A stretch of 64,000 nt of DNA from an uncultured Candidatus Saccharibacteria bacterium (GCA_964350735.1 CAYGKO010000004.1:19583-83582); one strand, 5' to 3'; numbered from the stretch's first letter, positions 747 through 45,638 are shown. Made by a program: numbers and translations. The notes: generated by a model from the letters alone, not told the origin.

Positions 747-802
747 ATCATACCAAAGAGCGACCCCAAATGAGATCGCTCTTTGCGTACAATGTGTTTT
801 AT

Positions 803-1309: not shown

Positions 1310-1500
1310 ATTTTATTTTTTATTTGGTTACTTTGGTATAAGGATGATTTGTATAGATAACTGAATAAAATTCTTTCAGTACAAATGCAATATCATGAAG
1401 AGATCTTCTTAATCGTGCTCTTCACTAACTACTACGAACTCACTCGCTATAGTATTTCAAACGCCTCAAACTAGAATATAAAAAATAGAATCGTCAATAA

Positions 1501-2076: not shown

Positions 2077-2094
2077 AGCAATCAGTATACCAAT

Positions 2095-4008: not shown

Positions 4009-4010
4009 GC

Positions 4011-6357: not shown

Positions 6358-7650
6358 CTAGATAGTTCGCATTTCTAGCATTAGAAGTAACGCCTTAATG
6401 AGTTCTATCAGCTGATTCCGCATTGCATCAGTATCACTTTCCACTTCTACGGCTGCAGGTTTGGTTTTTAAGTACTCGCTGTATGTAGGAACTGAGTCAG
6501 TAGCATACGTATTATCGAACTCAATCTCCTCTGCAATATCTTGATAGGTGATCACGCCAGTAATTCGCAGCTGAGTGCGGTTATTCAACTGATCAGTAAT
6601 TTCTTCGATCAAATACCCTTTCCAGAGGCCGCTATCAATTTTATATGCCGTAGTCTGGTATGAGTACTCACAGTCATCGAGATATTCTACAGTCACCAAA
6701 TCTTTTGAAAAAGCGCCATTAGATTTCACCTGCACACGAGTTATATCTCTAGAAGAAAATTCTTCACATCGTTCTAACTTATCGAGATCCGATATAATCT
6801 GTTCCAGCTCGCTGCCATAGTCTGTAAAATTTACATCTATATCTGCAATAGCTTCTATATCATCTTCGTTATATGAACCACCAATACCGTAAGTATCCTG
6901 CATTTCATCAAGTAACGCTTCTAGGTAATTATCAAGGTTTGAATTACCTTGATAACGAAGAGTTATGTAGACAGGGACACTCTCAACTCCAAAATCAATC
7001 AAAGTGGCGATATAGCCATCTTTATCACCAGCTTGGATGGTGATATCTTCAATCTTTGAAAATGTCAGACCGTCACGATCAGCTGCATATCCATCATTGG
7101 ATGGTGAGCCAATGGTACTAAAATCTACATCGACTTTCTCTCTTGCATCTTCTGCGTCTTCTCCAGTCCTGCGACCCAAATCTGCGTACACATCATCTTT
7201 GTCTGTAGTGTCCCAGATTTGGTAGTAACCCTCACGACCATCAGTGTATTCCAACTCCATATCAATCCGGTCTTCTGGGTAATTGATAGTAGCAAATGCT
7301 TCAGCAATAATTACAGAACGAAACTCTGTCACATCTTCAAGGTCATCACCGCCAAAATTACCACGCATCATATAGGCGCTTTGCAGGTGTTCAGCAATAT
7401 CATTGAGCACCTCATCTTCATCGTCTTCGTCGCCAACAAAACCGTCAAAATCTAACTCCTCATCTTCATCTTCAATTTTAACTTCCACCTCAATTTCATT
7501 ATTGTAACCGTACACAACGTTAATGTACTCAATATCATTTTCATCGTAATCTGAATAATCCTCGGCTGCTAAAGCTGGGCCTAAAGAAAATCCGAACATT
7601 AATAACGCTCCTAAAACTATAATCTGAAACTTTGAAATTATTGAACCCAT
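6358..7650 (-). CDS. Highly acidic (Asp/Glu-rich) secreted protein
   Basis: 430 aa with a signal peptide (IIVLGALLMFGFSLGPALAAED) and long runs of D and E (EDEDEELDFDGFVGDEDDEDE). No enzymatic motif was recognised. Confidence 0.45.
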   Translation of the reverse strand: MGSIISKFQIIVLGALLMFGFSLGPALAAEDYSDYDENDIEYINVVYGYNNEIEVEVKIEDEDEELDFDGFVGDEDDEDEVLNDIAEHLQSAYMMRGNFGGDDLEDVTEFRSVIIAEAFATINYPEDRIDMELEYTDGREGYYQIWDTTDKDDVYADLGRRTGEDAEDAREKVDVDFSTIGSPSNDGYAADRDGLTFSKIEDITIQAGDKDGYIATLIDFGVESVPVYITLRYQGNSNLDNYLEALLDEMQDTYGIGGSYNEDDIEAIADIDVNFTDYGSELEQIISDLDKLERCEEFSSRDITRVQVKSNGAFSKDLVTVEYLDDCEYSYQTTAYKIDSGLWKGYLIEEITDQLNNRTQLRITGVITYQDIAEEIEFDNTYATDSVPTYSEYLKTKPAAVEVESDTDAMRNQLIELIKALLLMLEMRTI

Positions 7651-7797
7651 ATTTTCTACTTAATGTATAAACTCACGCTAATGTTGTGTCCAAACGCACT
7701 ATTCCCTACCCATATCCTATTCACCATACATAACATCTTGATAAACTTCAAGATCAGTATTTGTATACCCCCATAGGTGCGGTATCATGACTGCCAC

Positions 7798-7882
7798 GGA
7801 GAGATGGCTGAGTGGTTTAAGGCGCACGCTTGGAAAGTGTGTAGGGAGCAATCCCTCGCAGGTTCGAATCCTGTTCTCTCCG
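7798..7882 (+). tRNA. tRNA-Ser (anticodon GGA), type II with a long variable arm
   Basis: A manual cloverleaf gives acceptor GGAGAGA/TCTCTCC, anticodon stem CACGC/GTGTG and loop TTGGAAA (anticodon GGA). The variable arm is 17 nt and the T-loop is GGTTCGAATCC. No CCA is encoded. Confidence 0.85.
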
Positions 7883-7893
7883 CAAAATTAAGT

Positions 7894-7917
7894 AACCGCT
7901 TCGGCGGTTTTTAATTT
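7894..7917 (+). terminator. Terminator hairpin downstream of tRNA-Ser
   Basis: The hairpin aaccgc-ttcg-gcggtt is followed by tttttaatttt. Confidence 0.5.
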
Positions 7918-7918
7918 T

Positions 7919-8057
7919 GTGGAGAGAACAGGTGCAGCGTTTTGAAAAAACGCGCTGTACGATTCGAAAAGCGGTTTGTGATAGTTTGTGAGCGTAGCGA
8001 AACAAAGTATCCAAACGCTGCACCGTTCATGTAATGAAAGAATCCTGTTCTCTCCGC
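7919..8057. repeat. Palindromic element of about 140 bp whose termini are copies of the tRNA-Ser 3' end
   Basis: The 18-mer gaatcctgttctctccgc (tRNA 7866-7883) recurs directly at 8040-8057. Its reverse complement (ggagagaacagg) lies at 7921-7932. A 12-bp inverted repeat ggtgcagcgttt/aaacgctgcacc (7931-7942 and 8013-8024) sits just inside these. Confidence 0.5.
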
Positions 8058-8088
8058 CGTTTAGAGCTAGCACGAGACACTATGTTTC

Positions 8089-8682
8089 GTGCTGGTTTTG
8101 TTACAATTAATCAATATGAGTGCTACGACTAAAAACAAACAAGACTTAATCAATAGTTTTAAGCTTCTTGAGACACATATTGCGACATATGAGACAGGTA
8201 ATTATATTGTGTACCAAGCTATGGCAGTTGAGTTAAGAAAATTATTGTGTGAAACAAATCCTTCACCTTTATTAACTCGAGTGATTACTGATTTTAAGTT
8301 ACATAAATTGCATTCAGCAAAACTATTTGAGAAAAATCCTTCCTTATTGGAGGGGTTGGTTAACTTCATGCCTGGCACATTAAGTACAATGAATAAAACA
8401 ATACCAATATTTAACCTAAGCTTTGCTGAAGGATGGGAGCAGATGAATGTGTCAGACTGGGCTGATCAAATATTTTTCAAAGAAAAAATTACAATCCGTG
8501 AACTAATAAAGTCTGTTGCCGACAAAGAGGGGGCTCATTCAGATGAGAATTACAATGATACTTTGATTCATTGCAAAAGTTGGTCTTTCAACAATACCGA
8601 AAGTCATATTCTGGGTATATATGCGATTTCAAAATATGTACTTGCTGTATTTAAAAATGAGTACGAACCAAATTTGGAGTAG
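8089..8682 (+). CDS. Hypothetical protein, AT-rich cassette ORF
   Basis: 197 aa. Its codon usage and GC content are visibly lower than in the flanks. It is flanked by the 11-bp direct repeat cgagacactat (8073-8083 and 8687-8697). No motif was recognised. Confidence 0.4.
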   Translation: MLVLLQLINMSATTKNKQDLINSFKLLETHIATYETGNYIVYQAMAVELRKLLCETNPSPLLTRVITDFKLHKLHSAKLFEKNPSLLEGLVNFMPGTLSTMNKTIPIFNLSFAEGWEQMNVSDWADQIFFKEKITIRELIKSVADKEGAHSDENYNDTLIHCKSWSFNNTESHILGIYAISKYVLAVFKNEYEPNLE

Positions 8683-8851
8683 GGCTCGAGACACTATCGG
8701 ATTAAAATCTGGGAATTAGTAAAACGGCCAAGGTGGTCTTGACCACCCACGGTTCTAACTCGAGACAGCCCGCCTCACCCGGCGCGCCTTTTTCTATTAT
8801 TGATCATCTTAGAATTACCCACACAGCACTAATACGCTATACTTTCACACA

Positions 8852-9682
8852 ATGACCCCACCAGACCTATCAAATTTCTCCATCACTGATCCACACTTCG
8901 CCCTTGCTGACGCCGGTGAGGTTCTTTGGCGTAATACGAGCCAAGAGTTGGAGCTTGCGGTTAAATTTACAGACACTACATTTGCCGGATACGATAAATC
9001 GCATAGAGAAGCTCTGGATAAATCTTGGGGTGCTCTAGCCGCTCGAGCAGAATCTAGTTTACCCCCAGGCGACAAATTTAAATTTTATAACAGCGAGATT
9101 TTGAAGTGGGCTGATTTTGATCCTGCTACCAATACCGTCAGTGTCGAGCGCGGGATGTTTTACAAAGACATTACTGCTGTACGGAGCAAACAGGAAGTCT
9201 ACGACAGCATTCCAGCCGCTGATCGGCCCCGGGCTTTTGTACTCATGAATATTCTGATTACGGCTGACAATAAAATTGTACTGGGTCGACGGCCGTACTT
9301 TGGGGACTGGCCGCATGACCGCTTTGAATGCCCGGGTTCGTTTCTGAAGGAGAAACACGTTGTTGAAAGCTCTTTAGCAGAAGTCGCCAAAAGTCGTGTG
9401 TATGATGACTATAAAAACCACCCTCCCCTACAGACCACACCGCTGCTTATCTGTGACCTGCCTCGTGTCATGGAGACTTTTGCGCTCTACGTAACCCACA
9501 CTAGCATCATTGCTGATCAGCTCGAATCAGACTGCTATACTGACATCCTCACCATTGAAAACTCCCCCGCCGGCTTCGAACAGCTGAAATCACTGCCAAT
9601 CGACCAATTCCACCCACCGTCTAGGACAATGCTGCAGGCGTATTTTGAATCAGAAATAACGCTGAGCGAAGTACGTAACTAA
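8852..9682 (+). CDS. Hypothetical protein
   Basis: 276 aa ORF with typical coding density and no recognisable domain. Confidence 0.4.
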   Translation: MTPPDLSNFSITDPHFALADAGEVLWRNTSQELELAVKFTDTTFAGYDKSHREALDKSWGALAARAESSLPPGDKFKFYNSEILKWADFDPATNTVSVERGMFYKDITAVRSKQEVYDSIPAADRPRAFVLMNILITADNKIVLGRRPYFGDWPHDRFECPGSFLKEKHVVESSLAEVAKSRVYDDYKNHPPLQTTPLLICDLPRVMETFALYVTHTSIIADQLESDCYTDILTIENSPAGFEQLKSLPIDQFHPPSRTMLQAYFESEITLSEVRN

Positions 9683-28750: not shown

Positions 28751-29235
28751 ATACATCAAAAGGAAATGGCTGACTCGATCAGAGATCGTGTCAGCCATCG
28801 ACAGTTGCTATGTCGGATTAGCTAGTTCCGACACCTACGAGCAGTCAACCCGTAGTTCAGCCGTGCTCGGGCCGAATAAAATTAAGTACAGGCTTCTGTT
28901 GCCAGGCGCCTGCGGACCCCGCCTTAAGCTGCGAAGCCTAAGGACTTAAGGCATTACGCCCGACCAACGAGGCCGTGCGCTCCACCCAGATTGGCTGCCA
29001 TCCACGCGGGAACCGCGTCATGACCGCCATCGCTTTTAGCACGAGTGCCATTTGCGAAAAGTGAACCGATAACGGTGGTGTCTCACCGAACAAAAGCTAA
29101 CTCCTTTAGACGTCCGTCGATCCTATTTCGACCCCTGCATCCAAACGTTCGGGTGTTTGGTGGAGCCGCCGGGTACCGCCCCCGGGTCCGATCCGTTTAT
29201 TGCGAGCGCGTTTATTGCCATAGATCCCTAGAGAT
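28751..29235 (-). ncRNA. ssrA: Candidate circularly permuted (two-piece) tmRNA gene (ssrA) with its terminator
   Basis: Read 5'->3' on the minus strand, a T-arm-like CCGGG-GGCGGUA-CCCGG is followed by the acceptor 3' strand CGGCUCC-ACCA (+29158-29166). A 22-nt spacer follows, then GGGGUCG-AAAUA-GGAUCGACGG (+29135 downward), which resembles the tmRNA 5' end. GGGGUCG and CGGCUCC form 7 pairs including G3.U. An ORF-like frame starting GCA AAU lies 81 nt in. A terminator hairpin occupies 28768-28796. Confidence 0.5.
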
Positions 29236-29271
29236 CAGTTTCATCCTAGTATTAAAATAATTGAAAGTCAA
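29236..29271 (-). promoter_or_regulatory. Putative sigma70-like promoter for the tmRNA precursor
   Basis: On the minus strand, TTGACT is followed by a 17-nt spacer and TAGGAT, immediately after the stop of the HAD-hydrolase gene. The predicted start would give an acceptor piece of about 78 nt. Confidence 0.3.
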
Positions 29272-29955
29272 CTAAATATTGTAAATTACGTCTTTTCGCT
29301 CCACTACGACCTCCCAACCTCGTCGCTCTGCCTGCTCGTATAGCTTCTGATTTGGATTAAAACAAATCGCTCGTTCAACACTTTCAAACATTGGAATGTC
29401 ACCGTCAGTATCACCAACAGCAATCGAACCAGCAAAAGACACTGCTTCCCGATCTAGTACGCGCGCCACAATATTGGCCTTATTTTCGATCAAGTGCACA
29501 TCGGTCATTTCACCCGTAAAGCAATCCTGTGGTCCAATCTCATAGATGCGACCATACACTTTATCAAAACCTTGAGTTTTACAAAATTCGTCGAGGATAG
29601 TTTTTGGAGATTGTGAGATTGCTACTACAAAATAACCTTCTCTTTTTAATTCATGAATCAGATCCCGGGTATACCGATACACATGTTTGCTTTGCTCTCC
29701 CACAACCATTCTGCCCAGATCAGCCAATGTTCCGTAATGAACGCCTCTAATATGAGTAACGTAACAGTTAATTACTGCCCGTATGTACGCATCGTAAGTC
29801 CCCTCCCGATTCCGCCACGCATGATAGGCGTCGCTGTATTCAGCTCGTGACTGCTTTGCAAACACCCCCTCAGACACCAGTTTCTCCACCAGTTCAATTA
29901 ATAAACTGGAGCGAAATACTGTGCCGTCTATGTCAAAAAATGCTACCGGTTTCAT
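29272..29955 (-). CDS. HAD-superfamily subfamily IB hydrolase (phosphoserine-phosphatase-like)
   Basis: The start is taken at MKPVAFFDIDGT (HAD motif I). Motif IV is GDTDGD. Length is 227 aa. Confidence 0.7.
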   Translation of the reverse strand: MKPVAFFDIDGTVFRSSLLIELVEKLVSEGVFAKQSRAEYSDAYHAWRNREGTYDAYIRAVINCYVTHIRGVHYGTLADLGRMVVGEQSKHVYRYTRDLIHELKREGYFVVAISQSPKTILDEFCKTQGFDKVYGRIYEIGPQDCFTGEMTDVHLIENKANIVARVLDREAVSFAGSIAVGDTDGDIPMFESVERAICFNPNQKLYEQAERRGWEVVVERKDVIYNI

Positions 29956-35686: not shown

Positions 35687-36910
35687 CTAAATATCAATCT
35701 GATTATTTTGAATAATTTTTTTATATTCTAGAGCTGAAGAACGAACTTTGCGCTCTAAAGTGGCATAGTCAATTTTAATCAAGCCAAACCGCTTTGTTAC
35801 TCCCAAAGCCCATTCGTAGTTATCCATGAGTGACCAATACATATGCCCCCGCACATCAACTCCAGCCTCCATGGCACGAGCCATTCCCGTTACTTGCACC
35901 TGGATATATTGTGCGCGCAAATCATCATCCCAGTCAGCCAAACCAGCCTCAGAGACAAATATCGGCTTCTGATACTTCTTTAAGATCATAAGCGCCCCGT
36001 AGATACCGCTTGGATATACCTTCCAATCCATGTCGGTACGTAGATAATTTTTTTTATCACCGAATTTTGTATGCCGATAATAATTCAACCCAATCGAATC
36101 AAGATGATCATCAATCTTATTTAAAAACTGTATAGTCTGGAAGTACACCATCACACGGGCGTATAGTTTGTGGCGCCATTTTTGATCTGCTTCAAAAAAG
36201 TGCACATGCTTCACGATACTCACATCTACTTCAGGTTTTACCTGCTTAATACTTTCATACGCTGCGTTATGAGCAGTAGTCAAATGCTTCGCCACTGCAA
36301 AGTACGTGAAGAAATGCCAAAATCGAGCTTTTGCGCCAGTACGCTCAGAAGTTCCGTCTTCCTTGCCAATCTTTTTCCATCCAATCTTTGCTCGCTTAAA
36401 TGGTGGCCACGCCCCGTATAAATACCCGTGAGTTGCATACACATTTGGCTCGTTCATCGTAGTGTAGTCAACACACAAGTCACCGAACTCACCCACGACA
36501 AACGCGCAATAGCGCGCAAAAATATCAGCCGCGTCAGATCGCTCAAAACCACCTGACTCTGTAAACCAGATCGGGAGAGTGAAATGCCACAACGTCACAA
36601 ACGGACGAATGTTTCGCTTTTTTAATGCCCTAAGCACCTCACGATAGTGCTCAATTTCTGTTTGATTAAACTCCCCTTCTCGCGGCTCTATTCTAGACCA
36701 CTCAACTCCAAACCGGTGCGCATTATGTCCAAGTTCTTTCGCCAAATCAAAATCTTCCTCATACCGGTGATAATGGTCTGCTAATCGTCCTGCCGTGGGG
36801 ACTCTTCTCTCTTTTGCGGCCTTGGCCCAATCACAGTTCTCATTCCAGCCTTCAACCTGATATGAAGCTGTGGCGGCTCCCCAATAAAAATCTTCTGGAA
36901 ACTTGAACAT
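35687..36910 (-). CDS. Glycoside hydrolase family 1 (beta-glucosidase-like)
   Basis: 407 aa with the GH1 N-terminal signature FPEDFYWGAATASYQVEG, the acid/base TMNEP and a C-terminal region typical of GH1. Confidence 0.85.
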   Translation of the reverse strand: MFKFPEDFYWGAATASYQVEGWNENCDWAKAAKERRVPTAGRLADHYHRYEEDFDLAKELGHNAHRFGVEWSRIEPREGEFNQTEIEHYREVLRALKKRNIRPFVTLWHFTLPIWFTESGGFERSDAADIFARYCAFVVGEFGDLCVDYTTMNEPNVYATHGYLYGAWPPFKRAKIGWKKIGKEDGTSERTGAKARFWHFFTYFAVAKHLTTAHNAAYESIKQVKPEVDVSIVKHVHFFEADQKWRHKLYARVMVYFQTIQFLNKIDDHLDSIGLNYYRHTKFGDKKNYLRTDMDWKVYPSGIYGALMILKKYQKPIFVSEAGLADWDDDLRAQYIQVQVTGMARAMEAGVDVRGHMYWSLMDNYEWALGVTKRFGLIKIDYATLERKVRSSALEYKKIIQNNQIDI

Positions 36911-36913
36911 AGG

Positions 36914-38089
36914 TTAATCCAGTTTTGCGAGTTTAGTATCACTGATTCCGTATGTTTTACGAGATGCCCATAATTTCATTACTCTATTAACTCCATACCC
37001 AACACCCGCCAACAAAAAGAAGTATACGAAACCAAAGGCTGTGAATGATGGTAGAGAGTCCTCACCAAATAATCCGATCAGAGTTGCACCCACGCCCATT
37101 GAAGTTACGACCGTGAGGTTTTTAACTGAATTGCTAGTTGACTTGGCTTGTAGATCACCAAATAACTGTGCTGCAGATGAAACGTACTTCTGAGTAAGGT
37201 CCCAGATGTCTTGCATGTACGAAAGAGTATCTTCAAGCGTCTCATGCTTATATCCGAGTATTTTCTCAAAATCTTTTAGTCGTCTGTCTTTTTCTGCGAT
37301 CGAGCCGCGAGTACTTAAGTACGTACCCATCTGATTGATACGGGTTCCGATAAAATCAATGGTTTTAGCATACTCGTCAACCTGTTTTTTAAAATCAGGA
37401 ATCTCATTCCCCTTCATAGACCCTCGTTCTTTGACCTCAGCAATCTGTTCCCATATTGTCCGGTGCAAGTTGAGATAGCGGTGCATCTGTCCACGGAACT
37501 CACGCAAAAAGATCTGTTCTTCAATAAAGCGCTGTACCTGATCATCAGTCACCCCACGTTGATTGATAATATACAGTTTGTCACCCCTAAATATCTGATA
37601 GGCGTCATGCTCTACTGCAAAATATTGAGCTTGATCAAATTCACTGAAGAGCGTGTCAACCTCGGACTGATGGGCGTCACTCACCGACACAAAGTACGGA
37701 TACACTGTCTTGATATTTGCTAATTCTTTTGGTACTGGAGCTCCGAGACTAAAAATGTAGCTGAATGCTGGTGACAGCTTTTCTTCATAATATGAAGTTA
37801 ATTTTGAAATATCAGCCTGCAGGTCATGACTATGCTCTGTTGCCAATACAATCAGGCCATCTTCATACATCCGCACCGTAATACCATCTTCGGTCTGCAG
37901 TCTAATATATTCAAGTACATCAACCGTCAGATCCAGGTCTATGATATGTAAATCTGCACGCAGCGCAGTTAGTTTTCCCTGATCGAGTGGTAGTGGTGAT
38001 TCCGCCTCCCGCAAAAAATCATAAATTTCTCCCAAGTGAAGTCGAGTGCGTTGAAACCAACCTCCAACATGTACACGTTTAATTTCCAT
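36914..38089 (-). CDS. Hypothetical protein with two C-terminal TM helices
   Basis: 391 aa. The large N-terminal soluble domain and C-terminal TM pair give a CorA-like topology, but there is no GMN motif. Confidence 0.4.
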   Translation of the reverse strand: MEIKRVHVGGWFQRTRLHLGEIYDFLREAESPLPLDQGKLTALRADLHIIDLDLTVDVLEYIRLQTEDGITVRMYEDGLIVLATEHSHDLQADISKLTSYYEEKLSPAFSYIFSLGAPVPKELANIKTVYPYFVSVSDAHQSEVDTLFSEFDQAQYFAVEHDAYQIFRGDKLYIINQRGVTDDQVQRFIEEQIFLREFRGQMHRYLNLHRTIWEQIAEVKERGSMKGNEIPDFKKQVDEYAKTIDFIGTRINQMGTYLSTRGSIAEKDRRLKDFEKILGYKHETLEDTLSYMQDIWDLTQKYVSSAAQLFGDLQAKSTSNSVKNLTVVTSMGVGATLIGLFGEDSLPSFTAFGFVYFFLLAGVGYGVNRVMKLWASRKTYGISDTKLAKLD

Positions 38090-38139: not shown

Positions 38140-38916
38140 ATGAATAAAAACTGCCCAGACACAGCGATCGTTGTACGCTGCCGAAACGAAGAACGCTGGA
38201 TCGGTGAAACATTAGAGCGGCTGAAAAAACAAACGTATCAAAATTTTGAAATTATAGTTGTCGACTCAGGTTCAACAGACAAAACTTTGGAGATTGTAAA
38301 AGAATTCGACGTAACCCTTGTAGAAATAAAACCTGAAGAATTTACGTATCCCTACGCTATCAACGTTGGAATTACAGCTAGTACAGCCTCCGACTTCTAC
38401 GTCATTTTATCAGCCCACTCCTTACCAATTGGTGAAACGTGGCTCGCCAGTGCTATAAGAAATATTAAGCGGGATCCGCAAGCTCTTGGCGTATACGGGC
38501 CATTACTCGCTATGCCTGACGGCAGTCTAACTGACAAACTATTTCACAATACAGGCTACTGGCTCAGTAAGAAAAAAATGTTGCCCAGTACATCATGCAA
38601 AATCACTGTCATGAAAGGTGGCGTCATGGGCTTTACCAATGCCCTCATCCGAAAAGACCTTTATGAGCAGTACCCCATCGATGAAGCCTATGCGGGCGGT
38701 GGTGAAGATCATGTCTGGACTGAATACTGGATTAACCAAGGCTACCATGCCATCAAAGATCTCAACTTTGCAGTGCATCATTCACATTACCTAGGACCCA
38801 TCGGGTGGTATAAGCAGTGGCGGCATTGGAAATCTAACGCTACACCACAACCCTTTGTGCATATGCGGTACCGCAAGGATGCTGCTCACGCGCCCATCAA
38901 TACCCTCTCTCAGTAA
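38140..38916 (+). CDS. Glycosyltransferase family 2
   Basis: 258 aa with the GT2 N-terminal fold signature AIVVRCRNEERWIGETLERLKKQTYQNFEIIVVDSGSTD. Confidence 0.75.
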   Translation: MNKNCPDTAIVVRCRNEERWIGETLERLKKQTYQNFEIIVVDSGSTDKTLEIVKEFDVTLVEIKPEEFTYPYAINVGITASTASDFYVILSAHSLPIGETWLASAIRNIKRDPQALGVYGPLLAMPDGSLTDKLFHNTGYWLSKKKMLPSTSCKITVMKGGVMGFTNALIRKDLYEQYPIDEAYAGGGEDHVWTEYWINQGYHAIKDLNFAVHHSHYLGPIGWYKQWRHWKSNATPQPFVHMRYRKDAAHAPINTLSQ

Positions 38917-39625
38917 AGCTCTTCGGGGCTAAATACTTCAGCCACTTTTGATATAACTCGGTCGTTGCGATAACATCGCGCGCATTGTACGTAGCGATGT
39001 CGCGGAACTGTTTGCTTGCAAACAGTTCCGCGACATCATCCCCAGCCACACCGGCTGCTTTCGGACTCTCAATATCATACGCTCGACAAAACATATGTAA
39101 ATTTGGCCGTCGGTGCATCGCCCCATAAAACGTCAGCTGATCTTGAAGATCAATATGAAACGTCGTTTTTTGCTGATTGAGATATCGTCCTTCCATCAAG
39201 TCTTTAGTTGGGACAACGCCGCAGACCACTGAACGATGTAACAAGAATGGAACGTCAAAGCAGCGACCATTAAACGTCACAAAAGTGTCATAACTTTTTG
39301 CTCCTTCCCAGAAATCTCTCAACATCTCTGATTCACTGCGCTGCCTTAAAACATACCCATCAACTTCTTCGTCTGTCTCGTCACCGTTTCCTATGTAATA
39401 CACGGCACCCAGTCCCCGCTCTAGGTCGTACACTGCTATAGACACCACTGATCCTGTGAGTGGCGAGAAGCCTAGCCCATTTTGTAAATCTTCTAAAAGA
39501 ACAACGTGTTCCTCTTCGCTTTTAGCAGTTTTATCAATCCATCTGGTGAGAGAGTCTTGCGTCACTTCATCAAGTGCACCCCAGTCTTCACCTACTGTCT
39601 CAATATCAAAAATGAGGGTGGGCAT
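38897..39625 (-). CDS. RNase H-like DEDDy 3'-5' exonuclease (PolB-exonuclease-like/YprB-like)
   Basis: 242 aa. Exo I is LIFDIETVGEDW, Exo II is RCFDVPFL and Exo III is YNARDVIATTELY. Confidence 0.6.
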   Translation of the reverse strand: MPTLIFDIETVGEDWGALDEVTQDSLTRWIDKTAKSEEEHVVLLEDLQNGLGFSPLTGSVVSIAVYDLERGLGAVYYIGNGDETDEEVDGYVLRQRSESEMLRDFWEGAKSYDTFVTFNGRCFDVPFLLHRSVVCGVVPTKDLMEGRYLNQQKTTFHIDLQDQLTFYGAMHRRPNLHMFCRAYDIESPKAAGVAGDDVAELFASKQFRDIATYNARDVIATTELYQKWLKYLAPKSFTERGY

Positions 39626-39633
39626 ACTAGTGA

Positions 39634-40491
39634 TTATAAATCTACTGGAATACCGGCGAAGCAGCTGATGATATTTTCTGTATTCGAGACATGGTATTGA
39701 TACGTTCCATTAACATACTGCCCACCACAATCATCGAGTTCTTCCTTAGGAGTAATTGGTCCATATATCCCAAAACCATCACGGGCAAAACCAATTTTTA
39801 CACCACCTGGCACTGCTTGATACTGCCAAGCGTCGGTATTGAGCAGGGGCAGACCATTTGTAGTTACACCAATAGTGGTATCAGGTAAACAAGAATCAAA
39901 ATTTGAACGAATAGTCCGGATTGGAAGGGTTGTATATACATCTGTCACCAAAACTGACTGGGTTGATGATCCCACTTTTTGTATGAGCTGTGTATCAAAC
40001 TGTACTGACACATCTATAGCTACTGCCAACCGTGGCTGATTAGGCCAATCATTAGTTTTTATATGAGGTATTGCATTTCCACAATATTGGACCGGAGAAA
40101 TACTGGCAACAGTACCAGTAGAGACCACAGATTCATCAAACGAAACGGTGTCTGGCGAATCTACTGAAGTAAAAACTGGTGGCGCACTAATGAGTTGCCC
40201 CTCCCCAGCTGCAATCTTTTTTTGTAAGTCAGCCAAGCGATCCGCTCTGCTATCATTTTTTGGCACTCCAGAGATTGTAATATCCTGTACTTCAGCAGCA
40301 GAAAAATCTACCTCGTCACTAACGGAAAGTGCGCCCTGATCTTTTGTTTGCACTGTGTAAAAAACAACCATAATCAAAAACACTAACGCCGTTACAAACA
40401 ACAAAAAATCTCTCGTTCGTATCATATGCCCATGATACCAAAAGGCTTGCAGCGATGCTGCAAGCCTTTTGGTATAACCGTACGTACTCAT
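39634..40491 (-). CDS. Membrane-anchored YHYH-motif domain protein
   Basis: 285 aa with an N-terminal TM. The C-terminal DDCGGQYVNGTYQYHVS resembles the D.CGG...Y.YH signature of the YHYH family. It sits directly downstream of the QEGLA gene on the same strand. Confidence 0.4.
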   Translation of the reverse strand: MSTYGYTKRLAASLQAFWYHGHMIRTRDFLLFVTALVFLIMVVFYTVQTKDQGALSVSDEVDFSAAEVQDITISGVPKNDSRADRLADLQKKIAAGEGQLISAPPVFTSVDSPDTVSFDESVVSTGTVASISPVQYCGNAIPHIKTNDWPNQPRLAVAIDVSVQFDTQLIQKVGSSTQSVLVTDVYTTLPIRTIRSNFDSCLPDTTIGVTTNGLPLLNTDAWQYQAVPGGVKIGFARDGFGIYGPITPKEELDDCGGQYVNGTYQYHVSNTENIISCFAGIPVDL

Positions 40492-40500
40492 TCACCTTAC

Positions 40501-41778
40501 TCAAACAATCAGCTCTCGTAATAACTCCTGCTGTAGCTGATTGGTTGGATCATATTTGCCCAGCAATACAGATTCGAACAACTCAGGGCGCTCAGCCATG
40601 GCTGCCCACATACGTAAATTACCTTCGAGATATAACTTATCTTTTAAGAAGCAGAGTCCTGGCAATGCAGGATTACCGCCACGGAAGATTCGTACACATA
40701 AGCGCCACACATACTCTGTTGCTACAATATCAACATCATCTCGATTATGGCGACTGAAGCGATCGATGTAATACGGCTCCAAAAATGCAAAGGTCTCCTG
40801 GAAATCACGAGACTTCCCATCGAACAATCCTGTTGCTACCCCCAAGGCAAAGTATTTATCCCGGCCTGAAAATCGAAACTCACCAGCAACCAGTTGACTA
40901 CTCATAATGGCCAAACCTTCCTCTGCCGCCTGATACCCCGCCAACCCAATCGCCAAGAGCTGGAGAGGGCTTTTAAAGCCATTTTCGTACCGTCTAACGT
41001 GCACGCCAACCTCATGTGCATAGAGTTGATGTATTTTATCTGCGGAATATCGAGCTTTCTTGGGGATGAGGATTACCTGGCTTTTGTTCCGCACGTTGAT
41101 AGTATTTGTACGAGTACTCACCTTGCAGCGCCATTTTGGTGCAACTTTTTGTAGATTTTCGTTCCAAATTTCGACAACCTGATCCGCTGTATATGTGTCA
41201 TGACTCTGTTCCGTCAAGAACTGCAGCGGCTCCAGATACTTTTCTGCACTACTAATGGTGTCTGCTGTTGGCACAACAAACACATCACTATGTGAAGAAG
41301 GGTGTCTCTGAACACGTATTTGCAAATCTTTAATATACGGTGAGTGCCCGGCCATGTCAGATAAAACTGCATCAAAAATAGTCTTATCTAAAGACCCATA
41401 AAGCTTTTCTGTATACATACTGAACTGCGAATAATCCGCGGTTGCGGTTGCTGAGAGCATATCAAGGGAAAGTAGTAGTTCATCAACCTTTTGAAGATAG
41501 AGCGTTGATATTGACTTTTGGGCCTCTTCTTGTAGTATTTTACTTCGCAGGCTCAAAAGCTTGCCTTTCGCAACCGCATTCGCATTTTCATCTAGAAATA
41601 GATACTCGAATTGCGGATTAATTTTTTTACCTGAAGCCACAAAGGTATTAAAACAACTACGCATATTTACCGGCTTGATAGCATACGACCGCACTGCAGT
41701 TGGCAGAGAGAAAGAACGTAACGCCGTGAACCACTGCGCATCATTTTTCCTTAATTCTGGTTCAATCAATTTCATCAT
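40501..41778 (-). CDS. QEGLA-motif protein (DUF1704; MATCAP-like putative metallopeptidase)
   Basis: 425 aa. It has YQAAEEGLAIM (the QEGLA motif) and an HExxxH-like HEVGVH. Its length and C-terminal region match the flavohemoglobin expression-modulating QEGLA family, which is typically encoded next to RimK-like ATP-grasp ligases. Confidence 0.75.
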   Translation of the reverse strand: MMKLIEPELRKNDAQWFTALRSFSLPTAVRSYAIKPVNMRSCFNTFVASGKKINPQFEYLFLDENANAVAKGKLLSLRSKILQEEAQKSISTLYLQKVDELLLSLDMLSATATADYSQFSMYTEKLYGSLDKTIFDAVLSDMAGHSPYIKDLQIRVQRHPSSHSDVFVVPTADTISSAEKYLEPLQFLTEQSHDTYTADQVVEIWNENLQKVAPKWRCKVSTRTNTINVRNKSQVILIPKKARYSADKIHQLYAHEVGVHVRRYENGFKSPLQLLAIGLAGYQAAEEGLAIMSSQLVAGEFRFSGRDKYFALGVATGLFDGKSRDFQETFAFLEPYYIDRFSRHNRDDVDIVATEYVWRLCVRIFRGGNPALPGLCFLKDKLYLEGNLRMWAAMAERPELFESVLLGKYDPTNQLQQELLRELIV

Positions 41779-41795
41779 TATAATGACTATAAGTT

Positions 41796-42776
41796 ATGGC
41801 AGCTAAAGTTACAAATCTACAAATACTCAAACGGGCCGCAAAAAAGTTCGGATACAGCTACGGTCTCATTGATACCCCTTATTCAGAGGCTATTTATGTT
41901 ACTGATGGTGAGCGCCATTTTATCTCTCGTTCCAAAACAAAATATGGGATGTACCCAACTAACTATAAGTTCGGTGAGCACCTAGTCGATGACAAGGCAG
42001 TGACCAAACGAGTTCTAAAAAAATTTGGCTTTCGGGTTATTAAAGGCAAGGCTTTTCATATTGCCCCTCCCTACAAGCAGGCCATTACGATCAAACAAGC
42101 TGATCGGGTTCCAGCGGCGTATAAGTACGCAAAAAACATCACGTACCCTGTGTTTGTAAAACCAAACTCTGGGTCCCGCGGACTGCACGCAAGACTTATT
42201 TTCAATGAAAGTGCTTTCAAAAAACATGTTGCTACCATGAAAGCTGACAAGGTTAAATCATTTATCGTTGAGAAGTTCACTCAGAGACCAGAGTACCGCA
42301 TTTTTGTAGTAGGTGGTAAAGCTCAATTCATGTATCGCAAACAACGGGTTTCGATCACTGGTACCGGAACCCACACCATCGACGAACTCATTGAACTCTC
42401 TAACCATATCCCAGATGAAGAATTCCTCGGTCAACTACTACGAAATCAAAAGAAAACCCGTAATACAGTCCTCAGTTCAGACCATGAGCTTGTGCTGCAA
42501 GAAACAGCCAATATCAGTCTAGGTGCTGAAATTATTGATTACCGAGAAAAAATCCCTAAGTCTATCGACAAATGGACTAATCGACTCTACCAAACTGTTG
42601 GATTAGAAGTATTTGGCGTTGACGTATTCACTAAAGGTGAATGGGATGAACCAAATCAATATCTCATCATTGAAGTCAACTCTTCACCAGCCCTGTCTGG
42701 GATATACAACAAGGGACACCAAGAAAAGGTCTACAAGATCTGGCAAAGAATCATGACAAAATTCTTCGTTTCTTAA
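41796..42776 (+). CDS. RimK-like ATP-grasp ligase (alpha-L-glutamate ligase-related), paralog 1
   Basis: 326 aa with the ATP-grasp C-terminal signature LGVDVFTKGE...YLIIEVNSSPALSG and a central VFVKPNSGSRG. It is divergent from the QEGLA gene with only 17 bp between the ORF starts. Confidence 0.65.
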   Translation: MAAKVTNLQILKRAAKKFGYSYGLIDTPYSEAIYVTDGERHFISRSKTKYGMYPTNYKFGEHLVDDKAVTKRVLKKFGFRVIKGKAFHIAPPYKQAITIKQADRVPAAYKYAKNITYPVFVKPNSGSRGLHARLIFNESAFKKHVATMKADKVKSFIVEKFTQRPEYRIFVVGGKAQFMYRKQRVSITGTGTHTIDELIELSNHIPDEEFLGQLLRNQKKTRNTVLSSDHELVLQETANISLGAEIIDYREKIPKSIDKWTNRLYQTVGLEVFGVDVFTKGEWDEPNQYLIIEVNSSPALSGIYNKGHQEKVYKIWQRIMTKFFVS

Positions 42777-42989
42777 GACCTCAACGCAGCTAAACACTCC
42801 ATCAAGAAATCATAACTGTACAATACCTGCATTCAGCATGCAGGTGTCTCATCCGCTTTTATACATAATGTCATAATACAGAGCTTGGAATAGCCACCTC
42901 GTGGTATGCTCTACAAGCATAGATGCTCGTTATTTTTAGATTTCTGGCACCAGAAGATTACTAATCCCCCACCTAAAACCAAATTAACC

Positions 42990-43943
42990 ATGGCTCGCGT
43001 CTTACACATTGAACTACTACTCAAAGCTGCCCGGAAGATGAAACTGACTGCCATGGACGTCTCGGATGCCGGCGATAAGTCAAAGCTATTTATTAGCAAT
43101 GAATCTCTCTGCTATGTTGCTCATGATGACTATTTATATCCTGATGTCTCGATGTGGCAACGTCGCCTAATGGCAAACAAAATACTGACCCAACAAGTAC
43201 TGACCAAGTTAAAATACAAAACAATTAAGTCGTTTGATTTCAGCCCTCGAGACTACGACACTGCATCTGCTTTAGTAAAAGCGGTGAAGAAGTGCCCTGT
43301 AAAGTACCCTGCTATCACTAAGATAAACAGTGGTACGTACGGCTTAGGTATTGTTTTTCTTTCTAATGAAAAAGAACTAATTAAAAGCGTAACTGAATTA
43401 CATAGTGAGAAGAAACGCTTTATGATTCAGCCTGTACACTGGCATGATGAGTATCGAATTACCTTTATCGGAGGAAAACCTATTATGGTTCATAAAAAGC
43501 GTCTACCCCAAATTACCGGGGATGGTAGGTCAACTGTAGCAAGCCTACTGGAGAAACAACCTACAGAATTAAAGGACCAAAACTTCATTGCCTGGAACCT
43601 TGCCAAGCATAAACTTACCCCAAAAAGTATACTGGATGAAAATCAATTTTTAGCTACACACATCATCAAAAAACGGACCCCTGACTACTACAAAGTTACT
43701 AACTTCCCGACAGAGGTTGTGGCTTGGGGGAAGCAACTACTGACCGATCTCTCCATTAAAACCTGCGCCATTGATTTCATGGCTCCTAAAGGCCTCGAGC
43801 ATCCCGACCAGTTCATAATCTTCGAATTGAATTCCAATCCGCACTGGACGTATGTCATTGATGAACTCAACGACCGTGACACCCCTGTAAACATCTGCCA
43901 ACATATCTTAACTTCATATTTTGGAAGAAGTACAAAACGCTAA
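42990..43943 (+). CDS. RimK-like ATP-grasp ligase, paralog 2
   Basis: It carries AIDFMAPKGLEHPDQFIIFELNSNPHW and ITKINSGTYGLG. It is about 50% identical to paralog 3. The start is taken at MARVLH by alignment with paralog 3, although the ORF opens at 42906. Confidence 0.6.
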   Translation: MARVLHIELLLKAARKMKLTAMDVSDAGDKSKLFISNESLCYVAHDDYLYPDVSMWQRRLMANKILTQQVLTKLKYKTIKSFDFSPRDYDTASALVKAVKKCPVKYPAITKINSGTYGLGIVFLSNEKELIKSVTELHSEKKRFMIQPVHWHDEYRITFIGGKPIMVHKKRLPQITGDGRSTVASLLEKQPTELKDQNFIAWNLAKHKLTPKSILDENQFLATHIIKKRTPDYYKVTNFPTEVVAWGKQLLTDLSIKTCAIDFMAPKGLEHPDQFIIFELNSNPHWTYVIDELNDRDTPVNICQHILTSYFGRSTKR

Positions 43944-43984
43944 CCGACGAGAACTTATCTATACTAACCTAATCTAAATTACCC

Positions 43985-44929
43985 ATGGCTAACATTAAGC
44001 ACGCTGGTTTCATAGTGAAAGAAGCCCGGAAAATGGGTGTAACTGTGAGTGATATTTCTAACTTGAAAGATCAGACTAAAATTCTCCTTAGTAACGGCAA
44101 AAAACGCTTCATATTAAGTGATGAACATTTATACCCTGATGTTACTGTTTGGCAGCGTCGGATGATGTGCGACAAAATGTTGACGCAAAAGATTCTCACC
44201 AAACTCAAGTATAAAACCATTCATTCTTTTGATTTTAATAGTCGTAAATACAACAGCCAGAAAGAATTTCTGACAGCCATTAAGAAATGTCACCTGTCCT
44301 ACCCTGTCATTACGAAAGTAAACAAAGGAACCTACGGACTTGGTGTCACCTTCATTGCTAACGAAGCAGAACTTCTTCATAGCGCCAAAGAACTTTTTGT
44401 CGCCCGGCAACGCTTCATGATCCAGCCGATGCTCTGGCACACAGAATATCGCGTCACTTTTATTCACGGCGCACCAATCATGGTCTACAAAAAACTACTC
44501 CCCCAGGTAGTTGGTAACGGCGCAGCTACAATGGGGGAACTGCTGTCAAAACAAGCAGACGATCAAAAAGATGCGAACTTCATCAAATGGAATCTTTCAC
44601 GCCAAAAATTGGGACTTAAGAGTGTCTTAGCAGCTGGTGAAATATTTGAAACTCATATCGTTAAGAACGTCACTCACGAATACTACAAAGACGCTAAGTT
44701 TCCAAAAGAAGTACTTGGCTGGGGACAATCACTACTCCGCGACTTATCAATCAAAACAGTTGGAGTGGACTTCATGGCCCCAGCTGGACTTGATCACTCT
44801 GAACAGTTCATCATTTTTGAACTTAATTCCAATCCACACTGGACTCACGTAATCGAGGAGCTTAATGACTATGAAACCCCACGCAAAATCAGTCGCCATA
44901 TTCTGAAGTCTTATTTTGGAGCAAAATAA
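43985..44929 (+). CDS. RimK-like ATP-grasp ligase, paralog 3
   Basis: 314 aa with VGVDFMAPAGLDHSEQFIIFELNSNPHW. It is a tandem duplicate of paralog 2. Confidence 0.65.
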   Translation: MANIKHAGFIVKEARKMGVTVSDISNLKDQTKILLSNGKKRFILSDEHLYPDVTVWQRRMMCDKMLTQKILTKLKYKTIHSFDFNSRKYNSQKEFLTAIKKCHLSYPVITKVNKGTYGLGVTFIANEAELLHSAKELFVARQRFMIQPMLWHTEYRVTFIHGAPIMVYKKLLPQVVGNGAATMGELLSKQADDQKDANFIKWNLSRQKLGLKSVLAAGEIFETHIVKNVTHEYYKDAKFPKEVLGWGQSLLRDLSIKTVGVDFMAPAGLDHSEQFIIFELNSNPHWTHVIEELNDYETPRKISRHILKSYFGAK

Positions 44930-44969: not shown

Positions 44970-45638
44970 TCAGATTCCAAACTCAACCGCAGGTTCTGTT
45001 ACTACTGTTTCCTCACTTTGGATACCAAGGGCAGCTTCAATAAGACTGATCAGGTCTGCATACGAAGCAAACTGAATTCGCTCCCCATTAAGCGTGAAAG
45101 TCGGAGTACCGGTGAAACCAAGCTGTTGAGCGGTACGGAACTCTTCCATAATTTTATCGTCAATGACTGATGCATTGAGGTGCCGCTTATACAGCCCCAT
45201 ATCAAGTCCGATCTCTTCTGCGTATTGCTCAAAATACACATTCGGTGAAGCAGCGTTGCTCCACACTCGTTGATTTTCAAAAATCTTGTCGTGCATCGCA
45301 AAGAACTTCCCTTGTTGTCCCGCGGCTTCAGCCGCACGAGCTGCGGTCACCGCTGAAGGATGGATAGTAATGAGCGGGAAATGATTGTATTCAAATCGAA
45401 TCTGTTCACCGTATTGACTCAAAATGTCATCCACAACTGGTGCAGCCTGGGCACAGGCTGGGCACTGAAAGTCACTGTATTTAGCCAATACTACTGCTGC
45501 CTCTGGATTCCCCTTTACATGCTCAGAAAAAACAATTCCTTCATTTGCCTCATTGGCAGCATTATTACTATATACAAACGACCCTACTAACAACAAAACA
45601 GCAACGACACCAAAAATTTTCCACATGTGATTTTTCAT
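44970..45638 (-). CDS. DsbA-family thiol:disulfide oxidoreductase, membrane-anchored
   Basis: 222 aa with an N-terminal TM. The thioredoxin-fold active site is CPAC (KYSDFQCPACAQAAP). Confidence 0.75.
   Translation of the reverse strand: MKNHMWKIFGVVAVLLLVGSFVYSNNAANEANEGIVFSEHVKGNPEAAVVLAKYSDFQCPACAQAAPVVDDILSQYGEQIRFEYNHFPLITIHPSAVTAARAAEAAGQQGKFFAMHDKIFENQRVWSNAASPNVYFEQYAEEIGLDMGLYKRHLNASVIDDKIMEEFRTAQQLGFTGTPTFTLNGERIQFASYADLISLIEAALGIQSEETVVTEPAVEFGI

Follow-up and report, generated by a model that had tools for sequence, protein, structure and literature searches.

Results

The locus lies in a stretch of 64,000 nt (referred to as the window) from an uncultured Candidatus Saccharibacteria bacterium (GCA_964350735.1 CAYGKO010000004.1:19583-83582), which belongs to the Patescibacteria, a group with tiny genomes. 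All five ORFs of the original prediction are present where it had placed them (Table 1), and the 17 bp it gave for the gap between the divergent genes are exact. Orthologous gaps in the relatives compared range from about 5 to 62 bp without sequence conservation, and a promoter scan returned sites no more often than in shuffled sequence. No credible small ORF was found in the spacer between lig1 and lig2, and its folding (z = -1.27) is not significant; in L009 and L010 the corresponding spacers measure just 30 to 48 bp compared to 213 bp here. The start of lig2 is most likely M29 rather than the first position of the mechanical ORF, because this choice agrees with lig3, all homologues and a database entry of 317 aa.

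Table 1. Features of the peptidase/ligase locus, in window positions.
Feature	Position	Strand	Remarks
YHYH-like protein gene	39634-40491	-	ORF; Pfam YHYH sub-threshold
MATCAP/DUF1704-family HExxxH gluzincin, predicted metallocarboxypeptidase, 425 aa, MATCAP-B subclade	40501-41778	-	PF08014
Divergent intergenic gap, peptidase/lig1	41779-41795	.	17 bp, read from sequence
lig1, stand-alone ATP-grasp amidoligase, 326 aa, cyanophycin-synthetase-G-domain/GshAB type	41796-42776	+	
lig1-lig2 spacer, 213 bp	42777-42989	+	hairpin with 10-bp stem at 42823-42847
lig2, 317 aa, member of a rare and divergent ATP-grasp ligase subfamily	42990-43943	+	mechanical ORF from 42906
lig3, lig2 paralogue, 314 aa	43985-44929	+	
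DsbA-like thioredoxin-fold protein	44970-45638	-	Pfam Thioredoxin_4 90.5 bits, DSBA 65 bits

The minus-strand gene next to lig1 encodes a putative metal-dependent carboxypeptidase of the MATCAP family. Its product matches PF08014 with 114.1 bits (cut-off 27, E = 9.5e-33) and has the gluzincin fold of solved MATCAP. The motif HEVGVH (residues 255-260, with H255, E256 and H260) is followed by E286-E287-G-L-A, the (Q/E)EGLA element with the glutamate that serves as third metal ligand, and both motifs align with HEIGTH and EEGLA of KIAA0895L. The MATCAP-like assignment made previously is therefore well founded; of the motifs named at that time HEVGVH was found, while the supposed QEGLA reads EEGLA (AAEEGLA). 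In 32 homologues no exchange occurs at H255, E256, H260, E287, G288 and A290. Against TIGR02421 ("flavohemoglobin expression-modulating QEGLA motif protein"), a hypothetical equivalog with a curated cut-off of 338.65, the peptidase scores only 115 bits, and it falls into a monophyletic, separate subclade of MATCAP, here called MATCAP-B. A signal peptide was not evident in the sequence. The literature searched holds no biochemical characterisation of bacterial MATCAP homologues.

The three plus-strand genes encode homologous proteins (BLASTP of lig1 against lig2: 26% identity, E = 8e-28; against lig3: E = 4e-21). All of them belong to the ATP-grasp superfamily by fold and retain the invariant K, E-Y-R, D and E-x-N residues, including the magnesium-binding motif D...E-x-N. 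Family profiles, PDB matches and a predicted model of lig3 identify them as ATP-grasp amidoligases, as had been expected of three consecutive paralogs, yet the label "RimK-like" did not hold. With TIGR00768 lig1, lig2 and lig3 reach 43.0, 21.6 and 19.0 bits (cut-off 143.4), and with PF08443 28.6, 18.9 and 21.2 bits (GA 21), no stretch being significant by itself; Rimk_N (PF18030) has no match in any of the three. In contrast, the true RimK of another Saccharibacteria genome (L058) scores 185.6 bits and contains Rimk_N. The NCBIfam model of cyanophycin synthetase (TIGR02068, cut-off 850) gives 104, 34 and 42 bits, with a match covering approximately positions 164-450 of 862, and lig1 scores 86 bits with GshAB. 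The best PDB matches of lig1 are CphA1 (7lg5, E = 4.5e-14), followed by CphA2 and GshAB, while the predicted fold of lig3 is nearest to ArgX/LysX/RimK. Judged by sequence, the ligases are thus placed outside RimK proper and closest to the ATP-grasp domains of cyanophycin synthetase and GshAB. A full-length cyanophycin synthetase (N-G-M) was rejected, as the ligases comprise 314-326 aa and stay below the TIGR02068 cut-off. The ATPgrasp_ST score of lig1 (PF14397, 17.9 bits) is also under its threshold (GA 31.4). The pI values of the ligases are high (9.4 to 9.8; lig1 9.8, lig2 9.4) compared to a window median of about 5.4.

In lig1, K122, E166-Y-R168, N239-x-S-x-G-A, D276, E293 and N295 are kept, and ANISLGA represents the substrate/acyl-phosphate loop N-x-S-x-G-[GA] of the CphA/RimK/GshB branch. 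Its approximately 50 orthologues (62-73% identity) all stem from Patescibacteria-type sources; the syntenic ones in L001 and L007-L012 are 66-70% identical. Throughout the lig2/lig3 subfamily the loop is changed to H-I-[IT]-[KR]-K. Only seven close relatives of lig2 were retrieved by word search, and an exhaustive HMMER search of 1.84 billion representatives yielded 33 clusters at E<=1e-30; the second ligase of L008-L010 shares 33% identity with lig2. A recent tandem duplication had been proposed for lig2 and lig3, but they share 55% protein identity, 59% DNA identity and 34% identity at third codon positions, which are saturated. The duplication is therefore not recent, and lig3 is taken from these sequence identities to be an old paralogue of lig2.

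Divergent adjacency of lig1 and MATCAP-B was found in no fewer than nine further Patescibacteria genomes (L001, L007-L012, L092 and L093), whose neighbouring genes are just about 55-70% identical. The predicted pairing of ligase and peptidase is thus kept in relatives, which excludes chance adjacency, and lig1 forms the conserved core with the peptidase. Sequence evolution is much faster in the peptidase (33-36% identity among relatives versus 66-70% for lig1). In further relatives (L005, L027, L035, L044 and L056) the same slot, between the DsbA and the YHYH-like gene, is occupied by the canonical cassette as described with TIGR02421 and TIGR02291: a QEGLA/DUF1704 protein, a 7TM-inactive transglutaminase (PF14402) and an ATPgrasp_ST or "alpha-L-glutamate ligase-related" protein. 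The usual 7TM partner for which a search had been suggested is therefore present in syntenic relatives. At the locus described here the canonical 7TM-transglutaminase and ATPgrasp_ST genes are replaced, and tblastn with the respective L005 proteins found neither a 7TM-transglutaminase nor an ATPgrasp_ST/RimB-fusion ligase in the window.

Among 76 genomes surveyed, 44 encode an ATP-grasp protein within 5 kb of MATCAP, whereas 32 have none nearby, so that neither partner strictly depends on adjacency. The neighbouring ligases belong to several families (ATPgrasp_ST, true RimK with RimB, LAL-type and lig1-type), and the association reappears with different ligase families, in different gene orientations and in different phyla, DPANN archaea and Bacteroidota among them. 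In L058 the order is MATCAP, RimB, RimK. Three to four ATP-grasp genes beside MATCAP were found in three of the 76 genomes (four in L041), and the triplication is accordingly not unique. A lig1-like gene without MATCAP occupies the same slot in L091.

The product of the YHYH-like gene is membrane-anchored, as described before, but its YHYH match is below threshold (20.2 bits, GA 25) and the motif reads YQYH. Orthologues flank canonical, lig1-type and LAL-type cassettes alike, the gene adjoins DsbA in L024, where the MATCAP cassette is about 4 kb away, and it is present in L091, where MATCAP is absent. It is probably a syntenic neighbour outside the system and not a partner. The DsbA-like gene is a syntenic neighbour as well, not a system member; it marks the same slot edge in L005, L007, L009-L012, L027, L035, L044, L047, L087, L091 and L093. 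Exonuclease and GH1 genes are likewise conserved neighbours.

Discussion

The core of the system would be the divergent pair of lig1, a member of the cyanophycin-synthetase-G-domain/GshAB/RimK clade, and the MATCAP-B HExxxH zinc carboxypeptidase. By analogy to all characterised members of the ligase clade, lig1 would phosphorylate the carboxylate that ends a peptide or protein tail, possibly an acidic one, and couple it to an amino acid via the amino group of the latter, while the MATCAP-like enzyme would strip C-terminal residues singly. As ligation would be opposed by one-by-one removal, the balance of both activities would set the length or identity of the C-terminal extension. Lig2 and lig3 may be accessory ligases, in which the ATP/Mg residues are kept and the acyl-phosphate/substrate loop is substituted subfamily-wide; most likely they add a different residue or serve a different step. 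A cytoplasmic "ligate-and-trim" module of this kind is mechanistically coherent and is the reading we favour (probability about 0.6). In Pseudomonas, loss of the Rlo proteases causes defects that are rescued by deletion of rloB (7TM-transglutaminase) or rloC (ATP-grasp) (PMC11957051), which fits a ligase product that has to be removed by the peptidase. The cluster yielded no small precursor ORF and the window no rpsF, and none of the window's ORFs encodes a protein that ends in an acidic C-terminal tail. Counted against the module were the absence of a substrate gene nearby, L091 without MATCAP, the 32 of 76 loci without ligase and the faster evolution of the peptidase, which is unexpected if both enzymes share one conserved substrate.

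A sub-case of this model, put forward in the original prediction, is protein tagging, in which the ligases would extend one particular cellular protein at its C-terminus and the MATCAP-like enzyme would erase the tag. Such extension is known for RimK on ribosomal protein S6, LysX/ArgX on LysW and TTL/TTLL on tubulin. The action of eukaryotic MATCAP/TMCP on protein tails, the neighbourhood of MATCAP to RimB and a bona fide RimK in L058 and the strongly basic ligases speak for it, but the window ORFs and the cluster include no target gene, and the ligase sequences are nearer to the polymer and small-peptide synthetases CphA, GshAB and TIGR03103 than to RimK; tagging is less likely than not. It is possible, at clearly less than even odds, that the ligases instead build a free product, which might be a small peptide, a di- or tripeptide resembling an osmolyte, or a poly-amino-acid chain like cyanophycin or polyglutamate, and that the MATCAP-like enzyme degrades or sizes it. 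This is suggested by the sequence of lig1, nearest to the cyanophycin synthetase G domain, CphA2, GshAB and N-acetylglutaminylglutamine synthetase, by a distant lig1 relative followed by a Mur-ligase gene in L090, resembling a split cyanophycin synthetase, by ligase rows (three here, four in L041) typical of stepwise peptide assembly (PMC4431377) and by the related rlo operon of Pseudomonas, whose phenotype is osmotic (PMC11957051). However, the N and M domains of CphA1 are missing from lig1, which remains far below the family cut-off, the cluster contains no cyanophycinase or exporter, and the known MATCAP-family activities concern protein tails.

More speculative, and rather improbable, is the idea that Patescibacteria have an analogue of the "tubulin code" of eukaryotes, a non-templated C-terminal extension on a conserved cellular protein, written by lig1 (other residues by lig2 and lig3) and erased by the MATCAP-type enzyme. 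If this were true, one conceivable target would be a ribosomal protein, another even FtsZ, the homologue of tubulin with a C-terminal tail that matters for its function, and the exchangeable ligase sets in one slot would be lineage-specific tail "alphabets".

Ddl/Van-like dipeptide ligases for peptidoglycan precursors, with a VanX/VanY-like peptidase, are very unlikely: orthologues are labelled "D-alanine-D-alanine ligase-like ATP-grasp enzyme" by JGI and in L092 VanY is encoded about 4 kb away from the lig1-like gene, but the Ddl NCBIfam models give 15-31 bits (cut-offs >=243), the Dala_Dala_lig_N domain is absent, Ddl ranks below ArgX/LysX/RimK by fold and below CphA/GshAB by sequence, and the cluster has no mur genes. 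Plain neighbours without a functional link, within a conserved part of a compact genome, might be suspected from the lig1-like gene alone in L091 and from DsbA, YHYH-like gene, exonuclease and GH1, which are conserved here without obvious link; the recurrence of MATCAP with ATP-grasp genes across families and phyla and the co-occurrence of MATCAP-B and lig1 as a subclade-specific pair largely refute this and leave it little probability. A graspetide (RiPP) pathway, with side chains of a ribosomal precursor macrocyclised by the ATP-grasp enzymes and the leader cut by the peptidase, is the least probable, since no precursor-peptide ORF exists in or beside the cluster, none is conserved in the short spacers of relatives, and the ligases group with backbone-carboxylate ligases, not with the MdnB/C family.

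Comparison with known systems

The canonical cassette, two components of which correspond to Pseudomonas RloB and RloC (PMC11957051), likewise pairs this peptidase family with an ATP-grasp ligase. In contrast to it, the ligases described here belong to the CphA-G/GshAB-like branch, are divergently transcribed and three in number, and the peptidase is of a separate subclade below the TIGR02421 cut-off. Human MATCAP1/TMCP1 (KIAA0895L) and TMCP2 share the metal site (HExxxH and EEG) with the peptidase, and in the tubulin tyrosination/glutamylation cycle an ATP-grasp ligase (TTL/TTLL) is likewise set against a carboxypeptidase. The bacterial protein, however, is extended at its N-terminus by a helical region of about 165 residues and has no microtubule substrate, and its partner ligases are outside the TTL family (PF03133, 18 bits only). 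RimK-RimB, which polyglutamylates and trims ribosomal protein S6, also opposes a peptidase to an ATP-grasp ligase acting on the C-terminal carboxylate, and adjoins MATCAP in L058; here lig1 to lig3 are below the RimK family thresholds without Rimk_N, the peptidase is a gluzincin, not a retropepsin, and neither an S6 gene nor an S6-like tail was found nearby. CphA and GshAB enzymes extend the terminal carboxylate of a peptide. The G domain of CphA1/CphA2 and the C-terminal ATP-grasp domain of GshAB have the motifs G-x-G-x-x-T-I-x-E-L and N-x-S-x-G-G in common with lig1, but lig1 consists of the ATP-grasp core alone, the N-x-S-x-G-G loop is lost in lig2 and lig3, and the genomic partner is a MATCAP peptidase instead of cyanophycinase. 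Pairing of a ligase gene with a peptidase gene of these kinds is already recognised, and the locus represents an unusual local form of it.

Gene organization of the locus

All ORFs of the original prediction were found where it had placed them, and the 17-bp gap it had reported between the start of the peptidase gene and the ligases was confirmed as well. Three ATP-grasp ligases (lig1, lig2 and lig3) are encoded divergently to a HExxxH peptidase of the MATCAP family (PF08014, DUF1704). The start of lig2 is almost certainly M29 of the called ORF (position 42990), giving a protein of 317 amino acids, because the alignment to lig3 and to every homologue begins there and the 317-aa form is found in the database. 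The stretch between the DsbA gene and the gene of a YHYH-like protein is referred to here as the slot.

Features of the locus and its surroundings in the window
Feature	Position	Strand	Remark
Permuted (two-piece) tmRNA	28885-29275	-	
GH1	35687-36910		flank of slot
391-aa protein	36914-38089	-	
GT2 glycosyltransferase	38140-38916	+	
Exonuclease (PolB-type)	38897-39625	-	flank of slot
YHYH-like protein, 285 aa	39634-40491	-	membrane-anchored
MATCAP-family peptidase, 425 aa	40501-41778	-	
Divergent intergenic gap, peptidase/lig1, 17 bp	41779-41795		sequence read
lig1, 326 aa	41796-42776	+	
Hairpin in lig1-lig2 spacer	42823-42847	+	perfect 10-bp stem
lig2, ORF as called	42906-43943	+	
lig3, 314 aa	43985-44929	+	
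DsbA	44970-45638		flank of slot

The glycosyltransferase and exonuclease ORFs are convergent, with their 3' ends overlapping by 20 bp (38897-38916). The 391-aa protein contains two C-terminal transmembrane segments and has a sub-threshold match to CorA (21.3 bits, threshold 27); at 78% identity to its counterpart in locus L012 of a related genome, it is better conserved than any other gene product of the neighbourhood. The tmRNA was detected with the Rfam model alpha_tmRNA (RF01849, 223.9 bits over the full model), a strong match, in a Patescibacteria contig, to a model of the alphaproteobacterial type. The model tmRNA_permuted (RF04321) scored 107.8 bits at 29002-29219, and no tmRNA was called by ARAGORN at 28885-29275.

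Promoter and terminator sites were no more frequent in the locus than in shuffled sequence, and no motif was common to the divergent intergenic regions of the window and the orthologous loci. The spacer between lig1 and lig2 is unusually long (213 bp); its predicted structure is not significant (z=-1.27) and no credible ORF was found in it. The hairpin located in this spacer (ACCUGCAUUC, AGCAU GCAGGU region) may act as a terminator between lig1 and a lig2-lig3 transcript.

The MATCAP-family peptidase

By all sequence and fold criteria, the peptidase belongs to the MATCAP family; its enzymatic activity is predicted. It scored 114 bits against PF08014 (MATCAP, formerly DUF1704; gathering score 27). 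Aligned with 32 homologues in all, the family shows no variation at H255, E256, H260, E287, G288, A290, R366 and Y383, and the profile of this alignment matches the solved structures of human MATCAP/KIAA0895L (E=6e-14) with the HExxxH, EEGLA, RG and Y-x-x-G motifs all in register. The score against TIGR02421 was 115 bits, far below the cut-off of 338.65, and the protein is therefore no equivalog of the proteobacterial "QEGLA" protein. A second MATCAP was not found in the 64-kb window.

Eukaryotic MATCAP relatives were identified as tubulin-tail carboxypeptidases as late as 2022-2023. MATCAP/DUF1704 proteins are also widespread in bacteria and archaea, where none is known to have a demonstrated substrate. 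A literature search on DUF1704, QEGLA and bacterial MATCAP retrieved no experimental work on prokaryotic members, while the matches to PF08014 were mostly Plasmodium gene identifiers. TMCP1/MATCAP1 removes C-terminal residues singly and is also active in deglutamylation; its activity requires E281 of the HExxxH motif and E316 of the EEG motif (PMC10499314).

The three ATP-grasp ligases

Lig1 is homologous to both lig2 (E=8e-28) and lig3 (E=4e-21). The designation of the three as RimK-like does not hold in the strict sense: TIGR00768 yielded 19-43 bits (cut-off 143), Rimk_N is absent and PF08443 is marginal. The nearest sequence relative of lig1 is the ATP-grasp (G) domain of the cyanophycin synthetase CphA (TIGR02068, 104 bits; PDB 7lg5, E=4.5e-14); CphA2 and the C-terminal GshAB domain rank next, and lig3 gives a weak match to GshAB. 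In RimK, CphA, GshB-type enzymes and LysX/ArgX, the carboxylate that ends a peptide or protein is phosphorylated and an amino acid is joined to it. Residues that bind ATP and Mg are invariant in all three ligases (K64, K111, E154-Y-R156, D262, E279 and N281, lig3 numbering).

The CphA/RimK branch is marked by an N-x-S-x-G-[GA] loop, which lig1 retains; lig2 and lig3 carry H-I-[IT/V]-K-[KN] at this position instead. Since the replacement (consensus H-I-T-[RK]-K) is seen throughout the lig2/lig3 subfamily, it is conserved across that clade and does not reflect decay. This subfamily is rare, with seven proteins found in a word-indexed search and 33 clusters at E<=1e-30 in an exhaustive HMMER scan of 1.84 billion representatives. 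Lig2 and lig3 had been taken for a recent tandem duplicate. Their identity is 55% in protein sequence, 59% in DNA sequence and 34% at third codon positions, and in a neighbour-joining tree they form a trichotomy with P0108, a homologue from another organism; judged by this divergence, the duplication is an old one. All three ligases are strongly basic (pI 9.4-9.8, window median near 5.4), a weak hint at an acidic substrate.

Ligase replacement within a conserved genomic slot

The window was compared with 80 genome loci containing MATCAP homologues and with loci around selected homologues (given below by L numbers). A single-protein query retrieved no relatives from genome contigs, and the loci were recovered with an alignment as query; their ORFs were classified by phmmer and jackhmmer, with spot-checks against Pfam. 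The window is DNA of Patescibacteria (CPR); the MAGs with the closest homologues and syntenic loci bear the labels Kaiserbacteria, Paceibacterota, Nomurabacteria and "Patescibacteria group".

Five loci (L005, L027, L035, L044 and L056) share the order DsbA, MATCAP, 7TM-transglutaminase, ATPgrasp_ST (fused to a RimB-like retropepsin), YHYH-like gene, PolB-exonuclease and, further on, GH1. The 7TM-transglutaminase expected in relatives as the usual partner is present in the same slot, and the window has the flanks of these relatives (DsbA, YHYH-like gene, exonuclease and GH1). Neither 7TM-transglutaminase nor ATPgrasp_ST was found across the 64-kb window. The slot is occupied by lig1 divergently paired with a MATCAP in L001, L007-L012 and L093, with lig1 as the sole ligase in L001 and L007 and a lig2-type gene beside it in L008-L010. 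The lig1 and MATCAP pair replaces the genes of the canonical cassette (MATCAP, 7TM-transglutaminase and ATPgrasp_ST) in the slot.

In a tree, the lig1-paired peptidases, including that of the window, form one clade (MATCAP-B), while additional DsbA-adjacent paralogues present in L010-L012 and L093 are placed elsewhere. In these four loci (L010, 919-5582), the two paralogues flank the ligase gene or genes. The DsbA-adjacent copies are 27-28% and the lig1-paired type 35-36% identical to the window peptidase; the window retains only the latter type. Between these genomes, lig1 (66-70% identity) is conserved similarly to the neighbouring methyltransferase (59-68%) and GH1 (55-63%), and MATCAP-B (33-36%) and lig2 (33%) are less conserved than lig1. 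Even the lig1 relative of L092, at only 50% identity, is preceded by a MATCAP in divergent orientation (27% identity, E=9e-29).

The neighbour described as a YHYH-motif protein scored below the Pfam threshold (20.2 bits, threshold 25) and carries the motif YQYH. Its gene flanks all cassette types. It is present together with a lig1-like gene in the slot of L091, where MATCAP is absent, and directly follows DsbA in L024, where the MATCAP cassette is located about 4 kb away beyond a methyltransferase gene. The YHYH-like protein contains four cysteines and is anchored in the membrane at its N-terminus; in contrast, the ligases need ATP and the peptidase sequence has no evident signal peptide. The YHYH-like gene and DsbA were taken to mark the slot without belonging to the system.

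Other ligase families are found in the slot as well: an LAL-type ATP-grasp_4 gene in L047 and L048, and a lig2/3-type gene with genes for a 603-aa RimK-like and a 445-aa ATP-grasp_4 protein in L087 (ENA ERZ25072999 contig, 245-4582). In L087, the lig2/lig3-type ligase adjoins DsbA and TrmH, like lig3 in the window, and is divergent to the other two. Roughly 300 amino acids in the C-terminal half of the RimK-like protein are without family assignment, and the ATP-grasp_4 protein ends in a lysine-rich tail (KKTAGKKIAKKVTKKSVVKKETKKTAKKK). In the 3.6 kb of sequence that could be examined for L087, no MATCAP was found.

The MATCAP/ATP-grasp pairing is robust and general, and the particular ligase family is interchangeable. 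The former follows from several observations. An ATP-grasp ORF of at least 200 aa lies within 5 kb of MATCAP in 44 of 76 genome loci. L041 comprises an operon of 7TM-transglutaminase, ATPgrasp_ST/RimB, two ATP-grasp genes, RimK and MATCAP, L058 (Saccharibacteria) contains MATCAP followed by RimB and a bona fide RimK, and in Bacteroidota and DPANN-archaeal loci an ATP-grasp gene immediately follows MATCAP. At least two such ORFs occur in 17 and at least three in 3 of the 76 loci; three ligases are uncommon, not unique.

The six genes of L041 (2870-9242, CAZHQB010000025.1, a MAG labelled "uncultured Micavibrio sp.") are tightly packed on the plus strand and encode four ligases and one MATCAP; the RimK-like gene scored 119.8 bits and ATPgrasp_ST is fused to a RimB-like protease. 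In L058 (7560-10443, Candidatus Saccharibacteria UBA1050, DCDR01000001.1), the RimB-like retropepsin matches PF05618 (66.8 bits) and RimK matches PF08443 (185.6 bits) and Rimk_N (115.7 bits), with a further, divergent ATP-grasp gene upstream of MATCAP. L058 sets MATCAP beside genes for polyglutamylation of ribosomal protein S6.

Proposed function and relation to known systems

On the best-supported reading, the locus encodes a ligate-and-trim module of the cytoplasm. Lig1 would use ATP to add amino acids to the carboxylate at the end of a peptide or protein tail, lig2 and lig3, in which the substrate loop is altered, would make a different addition or serve another step, and the MATCAP-type enzyme would take off C-terminal residues. 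The families, folds, catalytic residues, conserved pairing and replacement of the canonical genes in the slot are established for this module; from these we infer its chemistry and a target molecule shared by the ligase and peptidase activities.

A protein as target is a tentative assignment, pointed to by the fold neighbours ArgX/LysX/RimK, the MATCAP precedent and the RimK context in L058; rpsF and proteins with an acidic C-terminal tail were not found in the window. Action on a free peptide or polymer is an equally tentative assignment. It is suggested by the sequence neighbours CphA, GshAB and NAGGN synthetase, by stepwise multi-ligase clusters and by L090, in which a distant lig1 relative is followed by a Mur-ligase gene as in split cyanophycin synthetase. 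The cluster itself contains no candidate substrate and no small ORF. In L090 (JGI 3300047172 contig, 7001-9281), the lig1-like gene P0104 overlaps the start of the 437-aa Mur-ligase gene, which has Mur_ligase_C and a faint match to Mur_ligase_M, by 8 bp, and the two look like a split cyanophycin-synthetase-like G and M pair. Three further readings were rejected: biosynthesis of a graspetide, a role in the cell wall like that of Ddl/Van, and adjacency by chance.

The related rlo operon of Pseudomonas offers a genetic precedent for the ligate-and-trim module, in that loss of the secreted RloA proteases is deleterious and the defect is rescued by deletion of the 7TM-transglutaminase RloB or the ATP-grasp protein RloC; in vitro, RloA is able to cleave RimB substrates and polyglutamate (PMC11957051).

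The locus by itself reveals no new kind of system. The association of QEGLA/DUF1704 with ATP-grasp ligases and 7TM-transglutaminase is already part of Pfam, TIGRFAM and NCBIfam annotation, and the current Pfam name reflects the MATCAP link. New is the variant specific to Patescibacteria. Its core, free of membrane proteins, pairs a CphA-G-like ligase with a peptidase from a dedicated MATCAP subclade; one or two further ligases belong to a rare subfamily whose substrate loop is remodelled, and the genes lie in a slot where lineages exchange ligase families. Together with its relatives, the locus ties the peptidase to ATP-grasp ligases across phyla, with the partner switched between families inside one conserved genomic slot. 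The minimal soluble two-gene version, lig1 and MATCAP-B, is attractive for in-vitro reconstitution as a simple entry to the biochemistry of a widespread system. Such work could show what is made and trimmed by the family as a whole, and could shed light on how the ligase/carboxypeptidase cycles of eukaryotes arose.
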